Positions 4,276 through 61,920 of a DNA stretch of 64,000 nt are shown here, piece after piece; position 1 is the first letter of the stretch, and each line of letters starts with the position of its first letter. The stretch comes from Dehalococcoidia bacterium (GTDB lineage: Bacteria > Chloroflexota > Dehalococcoidia > UBA2979): positions 1,472,001 to 1,536,000 of the forward strand of contig OZ219871.1 of the NCBI GenBank assembly GCA_964291495.2, read 5' to 3'. The notes beneath the pieces were generated by a model that did not search any database, was not told where the DNA came from, and worked only from the letters and a program-made list of their open reading frames with translations. The position numbers and the translations under genes were made by a program.

Positions 4276-4780
4276 CACTCCGGCGCCGCCGGAGTGGCGG
4301 GCTGCGCCCCCTCCCCCTCACCCCCGCCCTCTCCCTCCAGGGGAGAGGGGGCCGGATCGGTGCTGCGCGCCGGGTGGATTCCGGTCCCTTCCCGTCATTC
4401 CGGCGAAAGCCGGAATCCAGGCACGCCGGCGGTGCTGCCGCCTCGATAGGTTGTTGCGCCCTCGGAGCTTCGGCGTGCGCCTCCCTCACCCTCCGCCCTC
4501 TCCCGCGGGGAGAGGGGACCGGATCAGCCCTCGGGGGCCGGTGCACCCTCGGAAGTTCCGGGTGGGGGCGTGGGGGCGCAGCCCCCACATGAAGAAAAAC
4601 TCCGGGGTGGGTGGGCGGGTTCGAGCGGCGCGCAGCGCCCGCTCGTCCGGGATGGGGGTGTGGGGGGCGCAGCCCCCCACGGCAGACTCGGGCCTGGCGT
4701 CGGGGCGCTCGTCGGCTCTTGGAGCTTCGGCGCGCGCCTCCCCTCACCCTCCGCCCTCTCCCTCGGGGAGAGGGGACCGG
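4276..4780. repeat. Intergenic mosaic of palindromic repeats
   Basis: Family A at ~4315, ~4483, ~4741; family B (CGTCATTCCGGCGAAAGCCGGAATCCA) at 4393-4419; family C module at ~4564-4680; hairpin at 4276-4296; lies between convergent genes. Confidence 0.85.
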
Positions 4781-6321
4781 AAGTCGAGCCAGACGCGGGC
4801 GATCTGGAGGCCGAGGTCGCCGGTGGCGTCGTAGAGGCGGAGGTTGCGCAACCACGGCTGGTAGACCTCGAAACGCAGCGCGCCCACCTTCTCGACCCGG
4901 TAGGCCCGCTCCAGCACGCGGTCCCAGATGCGCCGCAGCAGCTCGCGGCGCGCCTCCGGGTCCAGCTCGCCCGACTGGCGCTCCGCCCAGCCGTCGATCT
5001 GCGGGTCGCTGATGCCCCAGCGGTTGAGCGCGCCCCCCGTCACCAGCGAGTCGTGGAAGTAGGCGTCGGTGGTGAAGCCGGCGGGCGCGTAGCCGTCGGC
5101 GGCTGCGCCGTAGTCGTTGCCGCTCCAGGCGCGGTTGAACTCTGCCATGTCCAGCTCGCGCAGCGTCATCGACACGCCGAGGGCGGCGAACTGCTCCGCG
5201 ATCCGCTCGTTGGCGCGGCGGTTCGTGACGTCGTGGTAGTTGCGATAGCGCAGCTCGAAGGCGAGCGGCAGCGCGTCGGCGGCCTCGAGCATGCGTTGCG
5301 CCTCCGCCGGGTCGTGGCGCAGCCACGGCCCAAGGGCATCGCCCTGCGGCTCCTCGTCGAAGGCGAAGATCCAGGGCGTGCTCGGCAGCACCTTCGCGAG
5401 GCCCTCGTGCAGCTCCTCGGCCAGCGCCTCGCGGTCGATCGCCAGCATCAGCGCCTGGCGCACGCGCTCGTCGGCGAAGCGCGCGTTCGCGAGGTCGAGC
5501 GCGATGCCCCACTGCGAGGCGAACGCCGGCACGAGGTGCAGCCGCGTCTCCGGCAGCTCCTCGAGCAGCGCCTGTGCCTCGCTCAGCCGCTCCAGCGGGT
5601 TGCTGACGTACCCGAACTCGCCGCTGCGGAAGCCCTCGAGGCGGCGCGCCGGGTCCGGCTCGATCACCACCTCGAGGCCGTCGAGGTGGGCGGGGCCCTC
5701 CCAGTAGTCCGGGTTGCGGCGCAGCCGCAGGAGCTCGCCGGGCGTCGCCTCCTCGAGGATCAGCGGGCCGCTGCCGGCGAGGCCGCGCATTGCCTCGAGC
5801 GCGCCGCTCTCGTGCAGCTCGCGCGGGTAGATGCAGAACGAGCGGCTGCCCAGTGGCAGGTCGAAGTCGGCCTGCGGGCGGCGCAGCGTGATCTGCAGCG
5901 TGTGCGCGTCGAACGCCTCGCAGCGCGCCATCGCCGCGAGGTAGCCGCGGTGCGCGCCCTCGCGCGCGTAGCGCTCGATCGCCCAGCGCGCGTCCTCGGC
6001 GAGCAGCGGGCGACCGTCCAGCGGCGGGACGTCCTGCCAGCGCGCCTCGTCCGTGAGGTGGAAGGTGTAGGTGAGCCCGTCCGGCGAGCGCTCCCAGGAG
6101 CGCGCCAACTCCGGCTCCAGCCGCCGCTCGAAGGGATCGAAGGCGGCCCCGCCCGCGAAGCGCAGCAGCCGGTTCGCGACGAGGTTGGGCAGCATCAGCG
6201 TGCCCGCGCTGGTCGAGAACGTCGGGTCGAACGAGACGAGGTCCTGGTGCCAGCCGATGCGCAGCACGCCGCCCTCGCGCGGCTCGCCCGGCGGCTCGTC
6301 GAGCACGTAGGGCAGCGGCAA
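4744..6321 (-). CDS. ABC transporter substrate-binding protein, family 5 (DppA/OppA-like)
   Basis: GGVLRIG, PELARSWE.S.DGLTYTFHL, GSGP, RNPDYW, DERVRQAL..AIDR; start uncertain (TTG) and no signal peptide seen. Confidence 0.85.
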   Translation of the reverse strand: MPLPYVLDEPPGEPREGGVLRIGWHQDLVSFDPTFSTSAGTLMLPNLVANRLLRFAGGAAFDPFERRLEPELARSWERSPDGLTYTFHLTDEARWQDVPPLDGRPLLAEDARWAIERYAREGAHRGYLAAMARCEAFDAHTLQITLRRPQADFDLPLGSRSFCIYPRELHESGALEAMRGLAGSGPLILEEATPGELLRLRRNPDYWEGPAHLDGLEVVIEPDPARRLEGFRSGEFGYVSNPLERLSEAQALLEELPETRLHLVPAFASQWGIALDLANARFADERVRQALMLAIDREALAEELHEGLAKVLPSTPWIFAFDEEPQGDALGPWLRHDPAEAQRMLEAADALPLAFELRYRNYHDVTNRRANERIAEQFAALGVSMTLRELDMAEFNRAWSGNDYGAAADGYAPAGFTTDAYFHDSLVTGGALNRWGISDPQIDGWAERQSGELDPEARRELLRRIWDRVLERAYRVEKVGALRFEVYQPWLRNLRLYDATGDLGLQIARVWLDFRSPLPEGEGGG

Positions 6322-6368: not shown

Positions 6369-8819
6369 CTATTCGAGCACCCCCGCCTCCTCGAGCCGCC
6401 GCACCTCCGCCTCGGACATGCCGAGGTACTCGCCGAGCACCTCGACGTTGTGCGCGCCGAAGACGGGCGAGGGCAGGCGCAGGCTGGGCGGGGCCTCGGA
6501 GAGGCTCCAGGCGTTGCCGTTGAGCAGCTCACCGGCGGGGTAGTCCGCGTGGAGCACGAAGCGTTGGCGCCGCTCGGCGAGGTGGGGGTCCGTGATCGCC
6601 TCGGTGGCGTCGAGGACGGGGAACGCCGGCACGCCGTTTGCCTGCAGGGCTTCCGCCAGCTCGCGCTTGTCGTGCGAGGCCGTCCAGTCGTTGATCTCGC
6701 GGTCCAGCTCCGTGCGCGCCGCGATCCGCCCCTCTCGCGTCGCGAAGTCCTCACGCGCGAGCCAGCCCTCTCGGCGAGCGAAGCGGGCGAGTGCGCGCCA
6801 CTCGCCCTCCTCGCCGCAGGCGATGGCGATCCACTGGTCCTCGCCGGCGCAGCGGTAGATGCCGTGCGGCGCGTAGTAGCGGTGCGAGTTGCCGACGGGG
6901 CCGGTGTCGCGGCCGTTCCAGCTGTAGTCGATCACCGCCTCGGCAAGACCCGCGAAGCCCGCCTCGCCCTGCGCCAGCTCGATGAACTGGCCGCGCCCGG
7001 TGCGGGAGCGCGAGGCGAGCGCGGCGAGGATCGCGAGCGTCCCGTAGGCGGAGGCGATCGGGTCCAGCTCGGCCGCTTCTTCCATCACCTGCCCGTCCTC
7101 CGGGTAGCCGTTCAGGCTCTTCATCCCGAACAGCGCCGCCAGCGACGGCCCGTAGGTGATCAGGTCCGCCCATGGCCCGTCGAGGCCCGCCGAGGGCATC
7201 GCCAGCATGATCAGCCGCGGGTGCTCGGCCGTCAGGCGGGCGTAGTCGACGCCGAACGAGCGCATCACCCTCGGTGCGTAGTTGTCGACCACCACGTCGA
7301 CGACGCCGCAGAGCCGCTCGAACAGCTCGAGGCCGTCGGGCGTCGTGAGATCGAGGGCGATCGATCGGCGGTTGCGCAGGATCCACTCCCAGGCGAGCGG
7401 CTCTGCCGGATCGAAGCTGCCGGGCACGCCGGAGCCCCAGGGGCGCTTCGTCGTCTGCACCTTCACCACGTCCGCGCCGTAGTCGGCGAGGTAGCGGCTG
7501 ACGAGCGGCCCCGCCCAGACCTGGCCGAGGTCGAGCACGCGCAGCCCGGCGAGCGGGCCGTCGGCGGGATCGGCCGCGCCCGGGAAGTCCGAGGCGGCGG
7601 CCGGTCGCCAGGCATCTGCGCGCGCGGGTGGCCGAGGCGGCGCCGTCCAGCCCTCGGCGTTCGGCTCGTCGAGGCGTGGCGGCGAGCCGGGCGGGATCCA
7701 GGGCGTCCCGGCCATGCGGTAGGGCGCGCCGGGGACGCGCGGCGGCGGCTCGACTCCCGGCGCCTCGACGAGCAGGCCGCGCTCGGCGGCGTAGTCCGAC
7801 TCGCAGACCTCGGGGACGGTGAGCACGGGCTGGAAGGGGATGCGCTCGCGGCGGGTGATCTCCCACAGCTCGGTCTTCGTCAACCGCGCGAGGTGCGCGA
7901 CCATCTCGCCGCGCAGCACGCGCTGCACCCGTTCCGCCTGGTCCGGATCGAGGTTGCGGCGGACCTGCGCCTCGCCGAGGCCTCGGATCAGCTCGTCGCG
8001 CGCCCACTCCGGGTTGCCGAGGCCGTCGAGGAACGCGGTCCAGTGCCGCCCCATGTGCGTCATCGTCGAGAGGTGGCCGTCCTTGACGGGGTAGACGCCC
8101 CAGACGCCGCCGCTCAGGTTCTGCCCGTTGCGCTGCGGGATTGCCTGGCCGAGGTAGGCGACCTGCGGGATGCCGTGCCCCCAGACCGCAACGTTGACCG
8201 CCTCGAGCGCGCTGATGTCGACGAACTGCCCGCGCCCGATGCGGTCGCGGTGGTGCAGCGCGATCAGCGTCGCCAGCGCCGCCTGCACCCCGGCGTGCTG
8301 CACGTCGGCGGCGTCGAGCGGTGCGGTCAGCGGCTCGCGCTGCGGGTCGCCGAGGCGGTAGGCGACGCCCGCGCCGCAGTAGGCGAGCAGTGGCGCGCCC
8401 TTCCACCCGGCGTAGGGCCCGCTGTGCCCGAAGGTGGTGACGGCCGTCAGCACCAGACCCGGATGCGCCTCGCGCAGCCGCGCCTCGTCGAGGCCCAGCG
8501 CCCGCGCCTCCCGCGGGTGGAAGGAGTGCAGCAGCACGTCGGCGTCGGCGAGCAGCGCCTCGAGGGCGGCGCGGCCGTCCTCGCTCGCCAGGTCGAGGCG
8601 CGCGCCGGCCTTGCCGCCGTTGAGATAGACGAACTGGCCGCTGTGCTCGCGGTCGCGCTCAGCAGCGGGGAAGGGGCCGTGCTCGCGGATCGCGTCGCCC
8701 TCGGGCGGCTCGATCTTGATGACGGTGGCGCCGAGGTCGCGCAGCAGCTTGCCCGCGTAGGCGATGGCCTTGCCTCCGCCGGCCTCGACGATGCGCAGGC
8801 CGGCGGAGGCGCCTGTCAT
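6369..8819 (-). CDS. CaiB/BaiF family III CoA-transferase with two tandem domains
   Basis: LRDLGATVIKIEPPEGD in domain 1; GPLAGLRVLDLGQVWAGP..LADYGADVVKV in domain 2. Confidence 0.9.
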   Translation of the reverse strand: MTGASAGLRIVEAGGGKAIAYAGKLLRDLGATVIKIEPPEGDAIREHGPFPAAERDREHSGQFVYLNGGKAGARLDLASEDGRAALEALLADADVLLHSFHPREARALGLDEARLREAHPGLVLTAVTTFGHSGPYAGWKGAPLLAYCGAGVAYRLGDPQREPLTAPLDAADVQHAGVQAALATLIALHHRDRIGRGQFVDISALEAVNVAVWGHGIPQVAYLGQAIPQRNGQNLSGGVWGVYPVKDGHLSTMTHMGRHWTAFLDGLGNPEWARDELIRGLGEAQVRRNLDPDQAERVQRVLRGEMVAHLARLTKTELWEITRRERIPFQPVLTVPEVCESDYAAERGLLVEAPGVEPPPRVPGAPYRMAGTPWIPPGSPPRLDEPNAEGWTAPPRPPARADAWRPAAASDFPGAADPADGPLAGLRVLDLGQVWAGPLVSRYLADYGADVVKVQTTKRPWGSGVPGSFDPAEPLAWEWILRNRRSIALDLTTPDGLELFERLCGVVDVVVDNYAPRVMRSFGVDYARLTAEHPRLIMLAMPSAGLDGPWADLITYGPSLAALFGMKSLNGYPEDGQVMEEAAELDPIASAYGTLAILAALASRSRTGRGQFIELAQGEAGFAGLAEAVIDYSWNGRDTGPVGNSHRYYAPHGIYRCAGEDQWIAIACGEEGEWRALARFARREGWLAREDFATREGRIAARTELDREINDWTASHDKRELAEALQANGVPAFPVLDATEAITDPHLAERRQRFVLHADYPAGELLNGNAWSLSEAPPSLRLPSPVFGAHNVEVLGEYLGMSEAEVRRLEEAGVLE

Positions 8820-8880
8820 TGCGGCCGTACCCGGTCCCGCCTGGCCGTCCGAATCGGCCCCGGCTGTGCGCGCGTCGCCC

Positions 8881-10209
8881 TCAGTTCATATCCGCGAACA
8901 TCGGGTCGTCGTCGACCGAGTACTCGTAGGGCTTGAGCTCCTCGGGCGGGGTCGTGGCGAGGCTGATCGGCACGTCGACCTCGAAGGGGCCCTTGAGGTC
9001 GAGCTCCTCGGCCATCTCGCGCATGGCGGGGATGACGTGCTTCCCGATCAGCTCGATGTTGCGCATGTTGTCGCGGTGGCTGATGTGGCCGTCGGTGGCG
9101 TAGAAGCTGACGATGCCGGGCCGCGTCTGCTCGAGGACCTTGCGCAGCTGCGCGATCGCGTGGTCCGGGTCGCCCATGATCCAGGTCAGGTCGTCGAGGT
9201 GCTTCTGCAGCGTGGCCCCGGTGTCGGCGCCGCCGCCGGCGGAGCGCAGCCCCTTGGCGCCGGCGCGCTGGTTGTTGCGGGCCACGGCGCCGCGCCGCCT
9301 GGCGAGCGCGGCCGGCGAGTCCGGCGCGCCCCAGAGGTAGCCCGAGGGCGAGCTCCAGACCGGGTGGCCGAGGCCGGTGAACTCGCCCGCCATCCACATG
9401 AACTCGCGCGCGTTGCGCATCGCGTGCTCCATCGTGTCCTGCACGTGGAAGTGGATGGTCTGGCCGAAGTTCCAGGTGCCGACCTCGTAGCCCTTCTCGG
9501 CGGCGACCTCCTTGTAGGTGCCCATGATCCGCTTCTGCGCGCGCTCGTCCGTGCCGAGACCGATGTAGGGGTAGCGGTGCGCCGCCGCCCACTGCACGGT
9601 CTCGAGGCTCGACGTGCCGGGCACCCAGATGCGCGGGTGCGGCTTCTGCATCGGCAGCGCCCATGGGTTGACGACGCGGAAGTGGTACTGGTCGCCTTCC
9701 CAGCGGAACGGTCCGGGCGTGGTCCAGGTCTTGATGATCAGGTCGTGCGCCTCCTCGAGGCGGTCACGGTTGTAGGCGGGGTTGGCGTTCATCGCGAACT
9801 GCTCGGTGCCGCCGCCACGGATCAGGCCGGGCACGAGGCGACCCTGCGAGATCATGTCGATCATGCCGAGCTCCTCGGCGGTGGCGACGGGGTTGTCGCG
9901 CAGCGGCAGCGGCACGCCGAGCAGCACGATCTTCACGTTGTTGGTGACGGCCGCGAGGATCGAGGCCCAGATCTGGATTTGCGGCTGCATGCAGAACGGC
10001 GCGTTGTGGTGCTCGTTGAGCATGATGCCGTCGAAGCCGACCTCGTCGACGAGCTGGTACTCGGCGAGGCGGTCCTGGTAGATCTGGCTGCCCGCATCGG
10101 AGTCGTAGAACTCGTTGGAAAAGCGCAGCACGGTCAGGCCGTCGCGCTTGCGGGCCTCCTCCTCCGGATAGGCGGACATCGGCTGCTCGGTGAAGTACAT
10201 GATGAACAT
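8881..10209 (-). CDS. LLM class flavin-dependent oxidoreductase
   Basis: ATG 10209 (MFIMYF); GFDGIMLNEHH, AEELGMIDMISQGRL, QKPHPRIW. Confidence 0.9.
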   Translation of the reverse strand: MFIMYFTEQPMSAYPEEEARKRDGLTVLRFSNEFYDSDAGSQIYQDRLAEYQLVDEVGFDGIMLNEHHNAPFCMQPQIQIWASILAAVTNNVKIVLLGVPLPLRDNPVATAEELGMIDMISQGRLVPGLIRGGGTEQFAMNANPAYNRDRLEEAHDLIIKTWTTPGPFRWEGDQYHFRVVNPWALPMQKPHPRIWVPGTSSLETVQWAAAHRYPYIGLGTDERAQKRIMGTYKEVAAEKGYEVGTWNFGQTIHFHVQDTMEHAMRNAREFMWMAGEFTGLGHPVWSSPSGYLWGAPDSPAALARRRGAVARNNQRAGAKGLRSAGGGADTGATLQKHLDDLTWIMGDPDHAIAQLRKVLEQTRPGIVSFYATDGHISHRDNMRNIELIGKHVIPAMREMAEELDLKGPFEVDVPISLATTPPEELKPYEYSVDDDPMFADMN

Positions 10210-10365
10210 CGGCGGTTCCCCGTTCGGTGCTCGCAGCGCGCCGCTCCGGCGCATCCGGGGGAGCATACCAGCACAACGCCTTTCGATCGGCGATGCCGGA
10301 GCGGCCGAGGTGGTGAAGCGTCCCTCGCGCGGTACCCTTCCTACGGACGCGATTCGGGGTGCGGT

Positions 10366-10632
10366 GTGTCGAAGGTCTGGCAGGGGGTGCGCCGAGCCGT
10401 CGTCGACCTACTCGTGGGCTTTCGCACCACCTACCTCAACTTCCGCAACTACGATGCGCCGCTGTCGGTGAAGTGGCGGCTCGTCTGGCGTAACAACTGG
10501 ATCAAGGCGCGCACCTTCTCCCTGTGCTGCGGCAACCTCGGCGAGCCCGGCTGCTGACGGGACGTCGAGGAGCCCCGTGAGGGCTCGGAAGACCACCACC
10601 ACGATCATCCGGACCACCCGCACCACCACTAG
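10366..10632 (+). CDS. Small protein copy 1, putative selenoprotein (TGA at 10555-10557 read as Sec; 63 aa if it is a stop, 88 aa with readthrough)
   Basis: GTG 10366; ...CCGNLGEPGC-TGA-RDVEEPREGSEDHHHDHPDHPHHH-TAG; paralog starts exactly 330 nt downstream. Confidence 0.7.
10570..10586 (+). promoter_or_regulatory. Candidate SECIS hairpin, copy 1
   Basis: GAGCCC-CGTGA-GGGCTC stem-loop starting 12 nt after the TGA; identical in copy 2. Confidence 0.6.
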
Positions 10633-10695
10633 CGACGCCGAATCCGGGGGTCGAGGCGCTACCCTGTAGGGGCGAGGGCCGACCGGAGGTACCGC

Positions 10696-10953
10696 GTGCT
10701 GAACCCCTGGCGTTGGCTACGCCGCCTCGTCGCCGGCACCGTGAGGAGTTGGCGCACGACGTACGTCAACTTCCGCGACTACGACGCGCCGTTCCTCGTG
10801 AAGGTCGGCCTCTTCGCCCGCAACAAGTGGACGATGGCGCGCACGCTCTCGATGTGCTGCGGCAACCTCGGCGAGCCCGGCTGCTGAAGCGACTCCGGCG
10901 AGCCCCGTGAGGGCTCGGAGCACCACCACCACGACCATTCGCACCCGCACTAG
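10696..10953 (+). CDS. Small protein copy 2, putative selenoprotein (TGA at 10885-10887 read as Sec; 63 aa if it is a stop, 85 aa with readthrough)
   Basis: RBS GGAGGT then GTG; ...CCGNLGEPGC-TGA-SDSGEPREGSEHHHHDHSHPH-TAG. Confidence 0.75.
10900..10916 (+). promoter_or_regulatory. Candidate SECIS hairpin, copy 2
   Basis: GAGCCC-CGTGA-GGGCTC 12 nt after the TGA; stem can extend through CTCC/GGAG pairing. Confidence 0.6.
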
Positions 10954-10972
10954 CCCGCGCTGGCGCGCGGCG

Positions 10973-11158
10973 CCCCGCACCCCCACCCTCTCCCGCGAGG
11001 GGAGAGGGGGCCGGATCCCCTCCCCGTCATTCCGGCAAAGAGCCGGAATCCAGTTGGCCCGCCGGCCTGGCTGCCGCCTCGCTGGGTCGGCGCCCTCGGA
11101 AGCTCCGGCGTGCGCCTCCCTCACCCCCACCCTCTCCCTCGGGGGGAGAGGGGGCCGG
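10973..11158. repeat. Repeat cluster A-B-A
   Basis: Family A at ~10973 and ~11118; family B variant at 11025-11052. Confidence 0.85.
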
Positions 11159-11251
11159 AGGGTGCCTCGCGCCGGCACGCCGTGTGGCAGCGGCGGCTGG
11201 GGTCGTGTAGCGTCCGCTCGCGCCCGATCGCGCGCATCGAGGGGGTACGAG

Positions 11252-12337
11252 ATGAAAGCAGCAGTCTTCCACGGCGTGCACCAGCCGCTCACCATCGAGA
11301 ACATCGACGTCGACGAGCCGCGTGACTACGAGGTGCTGGTGCGCACCACCGCGGCGGGCGTCTGCCACTCCGAGCTGCACATGGTCGAGGGCCACTCGCC
11401 CGTCCCGCCGCCCGCCGTGCTCGGCCACGAGTCCGCGGGCGTCGTCGAGCGCGTCGGCAGCCGCGTGAGCTACGTCCAGCCGGGCGATCACGTGATCGCC
11501 CGCGGCACGTTCTGCGGCCACTGCGAGATGTGCCTGACCGGCCACCTCAACGTCTGCACGAACCGACCCGGCCGCGCCAGTGACGACGATCCGGTGATGT
11601 CCTGGAACGGCCAGCGCCTCAACCAGTGGGGCTCCAACATCTTCGGCTGGTCGGAGCAGATGCTGCTGCACGAGAACGGCGTGGTGAAGATCGCCCCGGA
11701 GATGCCGCTCGACGCCGCCGCGCTGCTCGGCTGCGCCGTGATCACCGGCTTCGGCGCCGTCATGCGCACCGCGCAGGTCGAGGCGGGAACCTCGATCGCC
11801 GTCTTCGGCTGCGGCGGCATCGGCCTGTCCGCCATCCAGGGCGGCCTCGTCTCCGGCTGCCAGCGCGTGATCGCCGTCGACCTGCTCGACTCCAAGCTCG
11901 AGGTCGCCCGTGAGTTCGGCGCGACCCACACCGTGAACGCCTCGAACGAGGATCCCGTCGCCGCGATCCGCGCGATCGCGGACGGCGAGGGTGTGCACTA
12001 CTCGTTCGACGCGATCGGGCTGGCGACGGTGGCGATGCAGGCCCTCGACTGCCTGCGCCCGCAGGGGACCGCGACGCTGATCGGCGTGATCCCGGAGGAG
12101 ACGCCGCTTACCTTCGGCTGGCGGCGGCTTGGCGGCGAGAAGCGCATCCAGGGCTGCATGATGGGCTCGAACCGCTTCCGCATGGACCTGCCAATGCTCG
12201 TCGACCTCTACATGCAGGGCCGGCTCAAGCTCGACGAGATGATCACCACGCGCGGCTCGCTCGAGGACGTCAACGACTTCCTGGAGATCATGAAGGGCGG
12301 CGCCGTCACCCGGCAGGTGATGATGATGGACTCGTAG
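11252..12337 (+). CDS. Zn-dependent alcohol dehydrogenase (MDR family)
   Basis: ATG 11252; GVCHS, LGHE, CGHCEMC..G..N.C, GCGGIG. Confidence 0.93.
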   Translation: MKAAVFHGVHQPLTIENIDVDEPRDYEVLVRTTAAGVCHSELHMVEGHSPVPPPAVLGHESAGVVERVGSRVSYVQPGDHVIARGTFCGHCEMCLTGHLNVCTNRPGRASDDDPVMSWNGQRLNQWGSNIFGWSEQMLLHENGVVKIAPEMPLDAAALLGCAVITGFGAVMRTAQVEAGTSIAVFGCGGIGLSAIQGGLVSGCQRVIAVDLLDSKLEVAREFGATHTVNASNEDPVAAIRAIADGEGVHYSFDAIGLATVAMQALDCLRPQGTATLIGVIPEETPLTFGWRRLGGEKRIQGCMMGSNRFRMDLPMLVDLYMQGRLKLDEMITTRGSLEDVNDFLEIMKGGAVTRQVMMMDS

Positions 12338-12344
12338 CGCCCGT

Positions 12345-12384
12345 CCGGTCCCCTCTCCCCGAGGGAGAGGGCGGAGGGTGAGGG
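12345..12384. repeat. Family-A repeat between convergent genes
   Basis: CCGGTCCCCTCTCCCCGAGGGAGAGGGCGGAGGGTGAGGG. Confidence 0.85.
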
Positions 12385-39829: not shown

Positions 39830-40025
39830 CCGGCCCCCTCTCCCCGAGGGAGAGGGCGGGGGTGAGGGCGCTCACCCGCACGCTCGAGGAGCGACGTGGC
39901 TCCGAGGCCCCCCGCCCGCGTCCTTTGGGGGGCGCAGCCCCCCACGCCCCCGCTGCTGCTCGCCCTCGGAAGCGTCGTTCGCCGATCCGGCCCCCTCTCC
40001 CCGAGGGAGAGGGCGGGGGTGAGGG
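39830..40025. repeat. Two direct family-A repeats around a family-C hairpin
   Basis: Identical 39-mers at 39830-39868 and 39987-40025; GGGGGGCGCAGCCCCCC between them. Confidence 0.85.
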
Positions 40026-56159: not shown

Positions 56160-57020
56160 GCGAGGCCCGCCCACCCACCCACCCGCCCTCAATGGATGCG
56201 GGGCTGCGCCCCGCGCCCCTCTCCGTGGGGGCTCTGCCCCACACCCCCTCGGAACTATCGAGGGCGCAGCCAACGCCCAAGGGCAGATCCGGCCCCCTCT
56301 CCTGGGGGAGAGGGCGGGGGTGAGGGGGCTCGCCACGGCTGACTGCCGCCTCTGAAGGTTCGTGCGCCGCAGGGCCTCTTGCCCGGCGCGCGTCGGACGA
56401 GCGGGCGCACCGTCTTGCTCTTGACGCGGGGATACCCGCAGGGCCGCTCGGCTGGATTCCGGCTTTCGCCGGAATGACGGGAAAGGGCTCCGGCCCCCTC
56501 TCCTGGGGGAGAGGGCGGGGGTGAGGGGGCTCGCCACGCTTGACTGCCGCCTCTGAAGGTTCGTGCGCCTCAGGGCTTCTTGCCCGGCGCGCGTCGGACG
56601 AGCGGGCGCACCGTCTTGCTCTTGACGCGGGGATACCCGCAGGGCCACTCGGCTGGATTCCGGCTTTCGCCGGAATGACGGGGAGGGGCTCCGGCCCCCT
56701 CTCCCCGAGGGAGAGGGCGGGTGAGGGAGCCTCCGGGCCACGTTGCGCCATCGGGGTCTGTTGCGCTTCGGGGGCTCGGCGGTGGGTTGGCGTGCCTGGA
56801 TTCCGGCTTTCGCCGGAATGACGGGAAGGGCTCCGGCCCCCTCTCCCCGAGGGAGAGGGCGGGGGTGAGGGAGCCTCCGGGCCACGTTGCGCCAACGGGG
56901 CCTGTTGCGCATCGGGCGCTCTCGGGGGCTTGGCGGTGGGTGGGCGTGCCCGGATTCCGGCTTTCGCCGGAATGACGGGAGGGGCCGGATGACGGAAGGG
57001 GCCAGGTGACGGGAAGGGGC
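56160..57020. repeat. Large intergenic mosaic array of alternating family A and B repeats
   Basis: A at 56289, 56490, 56691, 56833; B at 56453, 56654, 56797, 56951; two 201-bp and two ~145-bp related units. Confidence 0.9.
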
Positions 57021-61299: not shown

Positions 61300-61920
61300 T
61301 CCGGTCCCCTCTCCCGCGAGGGGAGAGGGTGAGGGTGAGGGCCCGGCGCGCAGCGCCGCCACACCCCCATCCCGGTCGGGACGCGCTGCGCGCGGCTCGG
61401 CCCACCCACCCGCCCTCAATGGATGCGGGGCTGCGCCCCGCGCCCCGCTTCGTGGGGGCTGTGCCCCCACACCCCCACTCGGAGCTTCCGAGGGCGCACC
61501 GTCCGGCCCCTCTCCCTCGGCGAGAGGGCGGGCCCGCGATGCCCCCCGACTGGATTCCGGCTTTCGCCGGAATGACGGAAAGGGGAGCCGGAATGACGGG
61601 AAGGGGGGCGGAGTGACGTGAGGGAGCCGGACCGACCGCGAACGCCGGGTGCGCCCTCAAGAGCTGCGCCGCAGGCAACGGCCCACGGGGGGCGTGGGGG
61701 GCGTAGCCCCCCACAGAAAGAAAATCCGAGGGTGGGTGGGCGGGCCCGAGCTGCGCAGCGTGCTCGTCCGGGATGGGGGTGTGGGGGGCGCAGCCCCCCA
61801 GAACAGAACTGGCGCGAGGCTCCAGAAGTTGTTGCCCCTCGGACGTCCGGCGTGCTGGCGCGCCGCGGGCGCGCTCCCCCTCACCCCCGCCCTCTCCCGC
61901 GAGGGGAGAGGGGGCCGGAG
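61300..61920. repeat. Intergenic mosaic of repeat families A, B and C
   Basis: A at 61301 and 61878 in opposite orientation, B at 61551-61577, C modules at ~61400-61480 and ~61687-61800. Confidence 0.85.

Follow-up and report, generated by a model that had tools for sequence, protein, structure and literature searches.

Why would two diverged neighbouring genes stop at the same codon and then carry on, in frame, with the same kind of histidine-rich sequence? The question is posed by a stretch of 64,000 nucleotides (nt) from a Dehalococcoidia bacterium (Chloroflexota, lineage UBA2979; GenBank assembly GCA_964291495.2, contig OZ219871.1, positions 1,472,001 to 1,536,000), referred to here as the window. 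Between positions 10366 and 10953 lie two short open reading frames (ORFs), copy 1 and copy 2, each of which runs for 63 codons, ends with CCGNLGEPGC and meets a TGA, past which the frame stays open (tail RDVEEPREGSEDHHHDHPDHPHHH in copy 1, SDSGEPREGSEHHHHDHSHPH in copy 2). Judged from sequence comparison, the two are very probably tandem paralogs of a previously unannotated family of small bacterial selenoproteins of ~65-95 amino acids (aa), in which UGA would be read as selenocysteine (Sec, U) with the help of a hairpin that resembles the bacterial selenocysteine insertion sequence (SECIS).

The two starts lie 330 nt apart, and the aligned DNA of the copies is 79% identical. Within it, a 35-nt block (TGTGCTGC...GGCTGCTGA) with the TGA at its end is free of mismatches, as is a second block of 20 nt (GAGCCCCGTGAGGGCTCGGA) that lies 12 nt beyond. 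Orthologs in the genus keep the start position, 63 codons ahead of the UGA. The tandem arrangement, its spacing, the shared CCGNLGEPGC-TGA end and the open tails closed by TAG had been proposed in an earlier sequence-only reading of this DNA, and they hold to the base, with tails exactly as given there. The same reading had remarked that copy 1 escapes the list of predicted ORFs. This is so because its frame runs open upstream to position 8764, hiding the gene within a spurious ORF of 597 aa, antisense to a luciferase-like monooxygenase gene, that would mislead any ORF-based annotation (Table 1). It had also considered conserved His-rich coding sequence behind a stop hard to explain by chance, and stop-codon usage bears this out: among 40 likely genes of the window, TAG is used 27 times, TGA 12 times and TAA once (the genome has 71% G+C), yet the codon after PGC is TGA in every relative from the genus. 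Both extended frames end in TAG, the dominant stop of the window.

Table 1. Coordinates of the gene pair and of the other features discussed; positions refer to the window unless a contig handle is given.
Feature	Position	Strand	Description and basis
Copy 1 coding sequence	10366-10632	+	Start GTG; 63 codons, Sec codon, 24-codon tail and TAG; 88 aa if UGA is Sec
Copy 1 in-frame UGA, proposed Sec codon (residue 64)	10555-10557	+	TGA at the aligned position in relatives
Copy 1 SECIS-like hairpin	10570-10586	+	Stem GAGCCC/GGGCUC, loop CGUGA; nt 16-32 from the U of UGA, G23/U24 in loop; covariation and FdhA-like geometry
Copy 1 His-rich tail EDHHHDHPDHPHHH	10588-10629	+	Frame-specific His codons; third-position bias; Cys-form homologs with His-rich tails
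Copy 1 stop TAG	10630-10632	+	Translation
Copy 2 GGAGGT Shine-Dalgarno-like motif	10685-10690	+	Sequence
Copy 2 coding sequence	10696-10953	+	Start GTG; 63 codons, Sec codon, 21-codon tail and TAG; 85 aa
Copy 2 in-frame UGA, proposed Sec codon (residue 64)	10885-10887	+	
Copy 2 SECIS-like hairpin	10900-10916	+	17 nt identical to copy 1; match of covariance model R1
Copy 2 His-rich tail EHHHHDHSHPH	10918-10950	+	Translation; frame-specific His codons
Copy 2 stop TAG	10951-10953	+	Translation
TACCCT ahead of copy 1	10333-10338		
TACCCT ahead of copy 2	10660-10665		
Spurious 597-aa ORF	8764-10557	+	Contains copy 1
Luciferase-like monooxygenase gene	8881-10266	-	
816-aa protein	6369-8819	-	Two CoA-transferase family III domains
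Palindromic repeat copies	4327-4349, 4496-4516, 4754-4774, 10986-11008, 11130-11152, 12351-12371, 39836-39856, 39993-40013, 56697-56717, 56839-56859, 61307-61329, 61890-61912		
selD	G000:C5:1608812-1609747 (L020), outside the window		Itself a selenoprotein gene, in-frame TGA (...SCGG-U-AGKLG)
FdhA-like selenoprotein gene	G000:C6:620132-620695 (L154), outside the window		SECIS geometry same as that of the family hairpin

How general is this UGA? A six-frame search of 61 related genomes returned 43 matches in 36 genomes, covering 19 of 43 genera, and 39 of these matches carry TGA. One of the remaining four, in a genome we call G047, was listed with TAA only, and the other three are weak (E>1e-3, 28% identity, not inspected) and show no stop. 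When 30 loci from the same set of genomes were scanned for the motif, all 36 copies found read CCG...GC-TGA. Beyond these relatives, a pattern scan of one genome per GTDB species gave at least 599 pattern matches, at least 428 of them confirmed as relatives, from which 80 loci were kept. By record title, 50 of the kept loci are of Chloroflexota type (Dehalococcoidia, Anaerolineaceae, Thermoflexus, Tepidiformales and others) and 26 of Actinomycetota type (Acidimicrobiia, Euzebyaceae and others); two are labelled Firmicutes, another Dormibacterota, and the last has no classification. Of their 85 copies, 84 have TGA after PGC, one has TAA (locus L064) and none has Cys. An even sample of 401 Chloroflexota genomes yielded 44 carriers, a count that takes in one genome flagged as unpublished (G327), with 46 matches: 44 with TGA, one Cys form (genome G085) and one partial. 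Across these three collections the TGA after PGC is thus almost invariant. A few members (L041, L115 and others) have a second in-frame TGA two codons past the first (U-Q-V-U), and many tails end in TGA instead of TAG or TAA.

In the protein databases, the family amounts to 662 clusters at 90% identity and 486 at 50% identity, and the names we saw were all 'hypothetical protein', without a Pfam domain. Annotation goes systematically wrong for selenoprotein genes, whose UGA is taken for a stop, and the family is a case in point: the gene call ends exactly at ...GC in 116 of the 120 best clusters and in 134 of the 150 best representatives. The other 16 representatives are eight Cys forms, four translations with W, one with Arg and three truncated entries. 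Wherever we saw the family, it is called a hypothetical protein of 50-65 aa; otherwise it is missed entirely.

If UGA is decoded as Sec, a SECIS should follow it, and a candidate lies at the expected place. We aligned nt -3 to +44 around the UGA for the 36 copies from related genomes, all of which are in register, and found a stem of 6 base pairs (alignment columns 22-27 with 33-38) that closes a 5-nt loop; RNAalifold returned the same six pairs. With a hand-specified structure of eight pairs, 82.6% of the cells in the 36 sequences are paired, compared with 71.1% in shuffles, and the covariation score of 0.304 (0.110 in shuffles) was reached by none of 500 shuffles and by none of six slid registers, all of which scored lower. 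Two pairs show repeated double changes: pair 23-37 occurs as AU (21), CG (5), GC (5) and GU (2), and pair 25-35 as CG (26), UA (5), UG (3) and GC (2). Counted from the U of UGA, the stem takes up nt 16-21 and 27-32, and the loop contains an invariant G at nt 23 and, at nt 24, a U in 90% or more of the sequences. For E. coli fdhF, a review gives the stem-loop a length of 17 nt (nt 15-31) and a distance of 11 nt to the UGA, and names U17, G23 and U24 as its conserved bases (PMC8659212). By that description the family hairpin has the same length and the same G23/U24 in its apical loop, with a spacer of 12 nt in place of 11. A closer comparison is offered by the FdhA-like gene of the source genome (...CNRT-U-HAPS), in which nt 15/16-21 pair with nt 27-32/33 and the loop GGUCU (nt 22-26) again holds G23/U24. 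A covariance model of the family hairpin, R1, finds in the window the two copies only, at 60.9 and 59.3 bits; it does not find the FdhA-like and selD sites, so R1 is family-specific and no general SECIS detector.

The hairpin also leaves its mark on the protein. As Sec sits near the C-terminus, the SECIS falls within the coding sequence of the tail and sets the conserved peptide EP(R/G)xGS, which is the translation of the hairpin sequence GAGCC...GGCUC: the RNA constrains the protein. The conservation of 'EPREGS' thus largely mirrors the SECIS hairpin in the RNA and not a constraint on the protein, which makes the family a clean example of a SECIS hairpin dictating a conserved peptide.

Can the organism make selenocysteine at all? 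The source assembly (3.08 Mb in eight contigs, 93.7% complete) contains selA (523.6 bits), selB (301.7), selD (368.3) and tRNA-Sec (77), all above curated cut-offs. Together with the FdhA-like gene and its canonical ...T-U-HAPS site, this machinery indicates that the organism uses selenocysteine. All four best matches lie elsewhere in the genome, in agreement with the earlier statement that the window has no sel genes. Among the 61 related genomes, 50 have selA above the cut-off. Where the TGA form is found at E<=1e-5, selA is present in 29 of 30 genomes, and the exception, which is 85% complete, has a tRNA-Sec of 66.4 bits. Conversely, of the 11 genomes that lack selA, nine lack the family, the Cys form occurs in one, and the last is this 85%-complete exception. 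The four carriers examined from records labelled Pelotomaculum, Eubacteriales, Dormibacterota and Euzebyaceae all have selA.

A further hallmark of selenoproteins is a homolog with cysteine in place of Sec, and two such forms were verified at the DNA level. In G047 (locus L132) the protein ends ...CCGHHGEPGC-Cys(TGT)-Asp-TAA, in a 90%-complete genome without selA or tRNA-Sec above the cut-off; in G085 (locus L135) it continues as ...QPGC-Cys(TGC)-ATGSCSIGPEHPH-stop, in a genome that has both. The hairpin at nt 16-32 is absent from both, as read from the sequence. Two database clusters, P0002 and P0003, are also Cys forms, and of the eight Cys forms among the 150 best cluster representatives, six have at least two His in the tail, for example ...GCCVGPDGSGSDPHDHDHDH, and several have further Cys. 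The Sec forms tell a similar story: in 110 distinct copies, the sequence behind the UGA contains 329 His codons in frame and 27 and 25 in the other two frames, and substitutions in the tail fall on codon positions 1, 2 and 3 in a ratio of 38/22/95 (38 close pairs, which are not independent). The frame-specific His codons and the third-position bias lead us to conclude that the tail is translated. Its length ranges from 2 to 39 residues (median 17) and its sequence also varies; the His-rich part, present with at least three His in 59 of the 110 copies, is a recurrent and not a universal feature of the protein.

The sequence-only reading had thus anticipated the near-invariant TGA, the Cys at this position in some homologs, the frame-preserving conservation downstream and the co-occurrence with the Sec machinery, and each of these was found. 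Its broader proposal, of small selenoproteins that combine two adjacent cysteines, an adjacent Cys-Sec pair and a tail rich in His, is supported by the UGA, the Cys forms, the downstream frame and the Sec machinery taken together. It also suggested that the peptide may chelate metal or act in redox chemistry, and that selenium supply could switch between a 63-aa form and a longer one.

Not everything fits smoothly, and several observations count against a selenoprotein. At L064, in a metagenome-assembled genome labelled Pelotomaculum sp., a TAA replaces the TGA at 6138-6140, while the hairpin, the His-rich downstream frame and selA are all present; this one-base variant is either a recent loss or an assembly error. 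Cys forms make up just 8 of 150 representatives, and for a selenoprotein family such a scarcity is unusual. All 6 base pairs of the stem are unbroken, without the bulged U17 of E. coli fdhF, and selD of the same genome differs as well: its best hairpin 3' of the UGA has either UCUC as the loop, at nt 20-23, or GGUGC, further 3'. An Rfam scan of 10200-11250 at E<=10 gave chance-level hits only and no SECIS family. Folded singly, the two regions of 81 nt do not exceed shuffles in stability (z = +0.20 and +0.84), so that the hairpin rests on covariation and geometry, not on energy. In one metatranscriptome library, contigs from relatives, of at least 85% likeness, cover 10250-10485 and 10524-10558 only; as evidence of transcription such contigs are weak, and the uncovered parts say nothing either way.

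How would the gene be decoded? As the ribosome arrives at the UGA, SelB with Sec-tRNA-Sec would bind the hairpin (nt 16-32, loop G23/U24), Sec would be inserted, and translation would proceed through the hairpin (EP(R/G)xGS) into the often His-rich tail. Without Sec insertion, the product would stop at 63 aa and have neither Sec nor tail. The family consensus reads ...NW(R)xYDAPFxxKLRLxxRNxWxKxRTRSxCCGNxGEPGC-U, in which CCG, two Gly, the final Cys and the Gly-Cys-Sec are invariant and N, Y, P, K, R, N, E and P are at least 90% conserved. An AlphaFold2 model of low confidence (predicted local distance difference test, pLDDT, 61.4; predicted template modelling score, pTM, 0.32) places helices at residues 4-28 and 33-50, followed by a disordered C-terminus; on reading the family sequences we saw no hydrophobic stretch like a signal peptide or transmembrane segment. 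The mature protein would then consist of a basic, possibly two-helix N-terminal part and a flexible C-terminus with vicinal Cys-Cys, a Gly/Pro turn, vicinal Cys-Sec and His repeats.

But what could such a protein do? Gene context is of limited help. In 22-24 of the 80 loci, all labelled Chloroflexota, the gene is found on one strand in the order leuC-leuD-[gene]-(aat)-leuB; in many Chloroflexota this cluster runs from a DUF2325-containing protein of ~900 aa through leuC, leuD, the small gene and aat (Leu/Phe-tRNA protein transferase) to leuB (L066, L075, L087, L092, L095, L104, L108, L129 and others). In one genome only, the gene directly downstream of the family member encodes a P1B-type ATPase that has two HMA domains. 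Fused forms, which might have named a partner, were not seen among proteins of 166-2000 aa, a search that is weak evidence. Since gene context is not conserved, the function has to be argued from sequence chemistry: four chalcogen ligands within 11 residues, plus His repeats. Seen in this way, the protein could bind a soft or borderline metal (Cu, Zn, Ni, Hg-like) through S3Se and His ligands, acting as a chaperone or buffer. This is the function that we tentatively favour over a redox role, at slightly less than even odds. It is supported by the His-rich tails in Sec and Cys forms of distant lineages, by the P1B-type ATPase of that one genome and, as far as the available text of Haft et al. 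goes, by the view that CU motifs are rare and suggest interaction with heavy metals (bioRxiv 10.1101/2022.07.06.499078). Two observations pull the other way on function: 51 of the 110 copies have fewer than three His in the tail, and the ~44 other loci have no common neighbour, with none shared across lineages.

The strongest competitor is a redox peptide, in which a selenenylsulfide of the C-terminal Gly-Cys-Sec would exchange with the vicinal Cys-Cys in a CC/CU relay. High-molecular-weight thioredoxin reductase carries a Gly-Cys-Sec-Gly redox centre on a flexible C-terminal segment, and the small protein would be akin to a free-standing version of this arm, serviced by thioredoxin or a flavoprotein disulfide reductase. 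The likeness lies in the Gly-Cys-Sec on a flexible C-terminal segment; unlike the reductase, the proteins here are bacterial and stand alone, without a flavoprotein part, a variable residue and then a tail follow the Sec, and there is no homology. The invariance of Gly-Cys-Sec across the family would suit such a relay, as would the pyridine-nucleotide disulfide oxidoreductase (Pyr_redox_2 + Pyr_redox_dim) encoded immediately downstream on the same strand in L138 and L146. However, these two loci, from close genomes, are 94% identical, and they are the only ones with such a neighbour among ~125 searched; a conserved thioredoxin-fold partner was not found nearby, and a purely redox function would not account for the recurrent His-rich tails, which Cys forms have too. 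In a 2026 review, redox function is considered likely for the majority of selenoproteins not yet characterised (PMC13188914). On balance, we regard the redox peptide as rather unlikely.

Metal binding and redox chemistry could also be facets of one broader role, which we put forward as speculation and consider improbable as a whole. The family might be a widespread 'seleno-metallopeptide', a free-standing two-helix adaptor with a CC...CU chalcogen claw and a His tail that would supply partner enzymes with a soft metal or with reducing equivalents; one such partner could be the [4Fe-4S] isopropylmalate isomerase, which adjoins it in many Chloroflexota. Selenium supply would then tune the output, because a stop at the UGA gives the 63-aa form without Sec and His tail, and Cys forms would be nearly absent because the chemistry of the task cannot do without selenium.

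The remaining alternatives dispute the selenoprotein itself. The UGA could be an ordinary stop after a 63-aa peptide, with conserved sequence behind it that acts at the RNA level (for instance as a terminator, as a hairpin for stability or in regulation) and an open frame that is accidental in GC-rich DNA. Long open frames are indeed common at 71% G+C, the unremarkable single-sequence folding energy would agree, and nearly all database gene calls end at the UGA. Yet an accidental frame would not concentrate His codons or show third-position bias, and the Cys-form homologs read on into similar His-rich tails. A scan of 10200-11260 for terminators and sigma-70 consensus promoters found neither, and no U-tract; the hairpin has the geometry of the SECIS of the FdhA-like gene; the TGA is kept in low-GC members and in a genome with TAG as its usual stop; and the gene co-occurs with the Sec machinery. 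An ordinary stop is therefore very unlikely. Slightly less probable still is a standard amino acid at the UGA, inserted by a near-cognate tRNA (Trp, Gly or Cys) or under an alternative genetic code. Public calls do give W in 4 of 150 representatives and 2 of 120 clusters, but these look like code-4/code-25 gene calling on metagenome contigs; moreover, selA, selB and other long genes of the genome are open without an internal TGA, and the SECIS-like hairpin and the Sec/Cys pairing point to Sec specifically. That the small size, Cys-rich C-terminus and tandem copies in the genus mark precursors of a ribosomally synthesised and post-translationally modified peptide is just as improbable, as in the lineages examined the gene has no conserved neighbour that encodes a maturase, a radical-SAM enzyme, a protease or an exporter, the most conserved parts are a long N-terminal two-helix region and the Cys cluster and not a leader/core pattern, and the gene is mostly single-copy and placed in housekeeping contexts such as the leu operon.

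Is the proposed selenoprotein family new? The sequence-only reading did not recognise it as a named family, and this stands: hmmscan of both proteins against Pfam and NCBIfam gave no hit even at E<=10. The 2026 review counts 119 families and subfamilies of prokaryotic selenoproteins; in the portion available to us we did not recognise the present family, and none of the NCBIfam/Pfam models listed there matches it (PMC13188914). The CU-motif entries in that portion are the Csac_0668-type 2Fe-2S proteins, SaoL, HgcA, SaoC, MbdU and KCU-star/DUF466, along with SaoB, whose motif is CUxxT (PMC13188914). Full-text literature searches and the deep-Sep paper, as far as their text was accessible, likewise returned no description. 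A preprint on Actinomarina mentions, in its available part, an uncharacterised 78-aa selenoprotein family that is the most abundant in this genus of Acidimicrobiia (bioRxiv 10.64898/2026.04.03.716425); compared by description only, it may be the same family. For a new selenoprotein family, the accessible text of Haft et al. names at least 10 examples, an essentially universal TGA and similarity that continues through U (bioRxiv 10.1101/2022.07.06.499078), all of which are found here. In mechanism, the pair would be ordinary: like other bacterial selenoproteins that depend on SelB and SECIS, it has an in-frame UGA, a stem-loop, selA, selB, selD and tRNA-Sec in the host, and Cys homologs. Unlike them, the family has no known fold or enzyme activity. 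It is widespread and appears to be neither annotated nor described.

Several known families share single traits with it. KCU-star/DUF466 proteins (PF04328, NF033934; E. coli YbdD and YjiX, which end in Arg-Cys-Cys) are also ~65 aa long with a C-terminal vicinal Cys-Cys or Cys-Sec, and YbdD has, as here, a 'DYD' motif after the first helix-like segment. In those proteins, however, Sec is the last residue (Lys-Cys-Sec-stop), whereas here a tail of 2-39 residues follows and a CCG motif is added. A relationship was rejected: there is no hmmscan hit at E<=10, PF04328 occurs in none of the 61 related genomes, carriers included, and hhalign of the family profile against YbdD gave a probability of 0.4. 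With SaoC (NF040734), SaoL, SaoB, HgcA, MbdU and the Csac_0668 family the proteins share the vicinal Cys-Sec motif, and they resemble CU-motif selenoproteins in the Cys 'packing' of non-Sec forms noted in the available text of Haft et al., as the Cys forms here add tail Cys (C-x4-5-C). SaoC, by the accessible description, is a secreted protein or lipoprotein of ~158 aa in a conserved nine-gene locus; the family described here has no signal-like N-terminus that we could see and no conserved locus. Identity with SaoC was dismissed, with no NCBIfam hit and neighbours unrelated to those of the SAO nine-gene neighbourhood. The CCG motif also brings to mind the HdrB-type CCG domain (PF02754), which bears a motif of this kind; this candidate was rejected too, with no Pfam hit at E<=10.

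The proposed family is found often in Chloroflexota and Actinomycetota; its carriers include sponge symbionts and several complete Dehalococcoidia genomes that consist of a single contig of 1.7-1.9 Mb (G115, G127, G188, G233 and G331), which suggests that there are isolates. Annotation models that include it would correct hundreds of gene calls and enlarge the selenoproteome of little-described phyla. Its motif is unusual, combining vicinal Cys-Cys, vicinal Cys-Sec and a His tail on a scaffold of ~50 residues with rare Cys replacements, and it could serve as a compact system for asking why Sec is used over Cys and for studying selenium-based metal or redox chemistry.

Finally, we turn to the surroundings of the pair. 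In the genus it lies between the divergent luciferase-like monooxygenase gene and a Zn-dependent alcohol dehydrogenase gene. The monooxygenase gene is adjoined by that of the 816-aa protein with two CoA-transferase family III domains, and the neighbourhood of CoA-transferase III protein, luciferase-like monooxygenase, alcohol dehydrogenase and aminotransferase is conserved across the genus. The sequence TACCCT stands 27-30 nt ahead of both start codons, inside a partly conserved stretch (GGTACCCT/GCTACCCT...TA(C/G)GG), and may be a -10-like element or an operator, so that each paralog would be transcribed from a promoter of its own. Just 3' of copy 2 lie two copies of a short intergenic palindrome (CCCTCTCCC-N3-5-GGGAGAGGG), which the window contains 12 times where none would be expected. 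As metagenome contigs pile up on 10973-11015 (summed depth ~3000, run X1), this repeat is a high-copy element of the lineage, similar to repetitive extragenic palindromic (REP) sequences.

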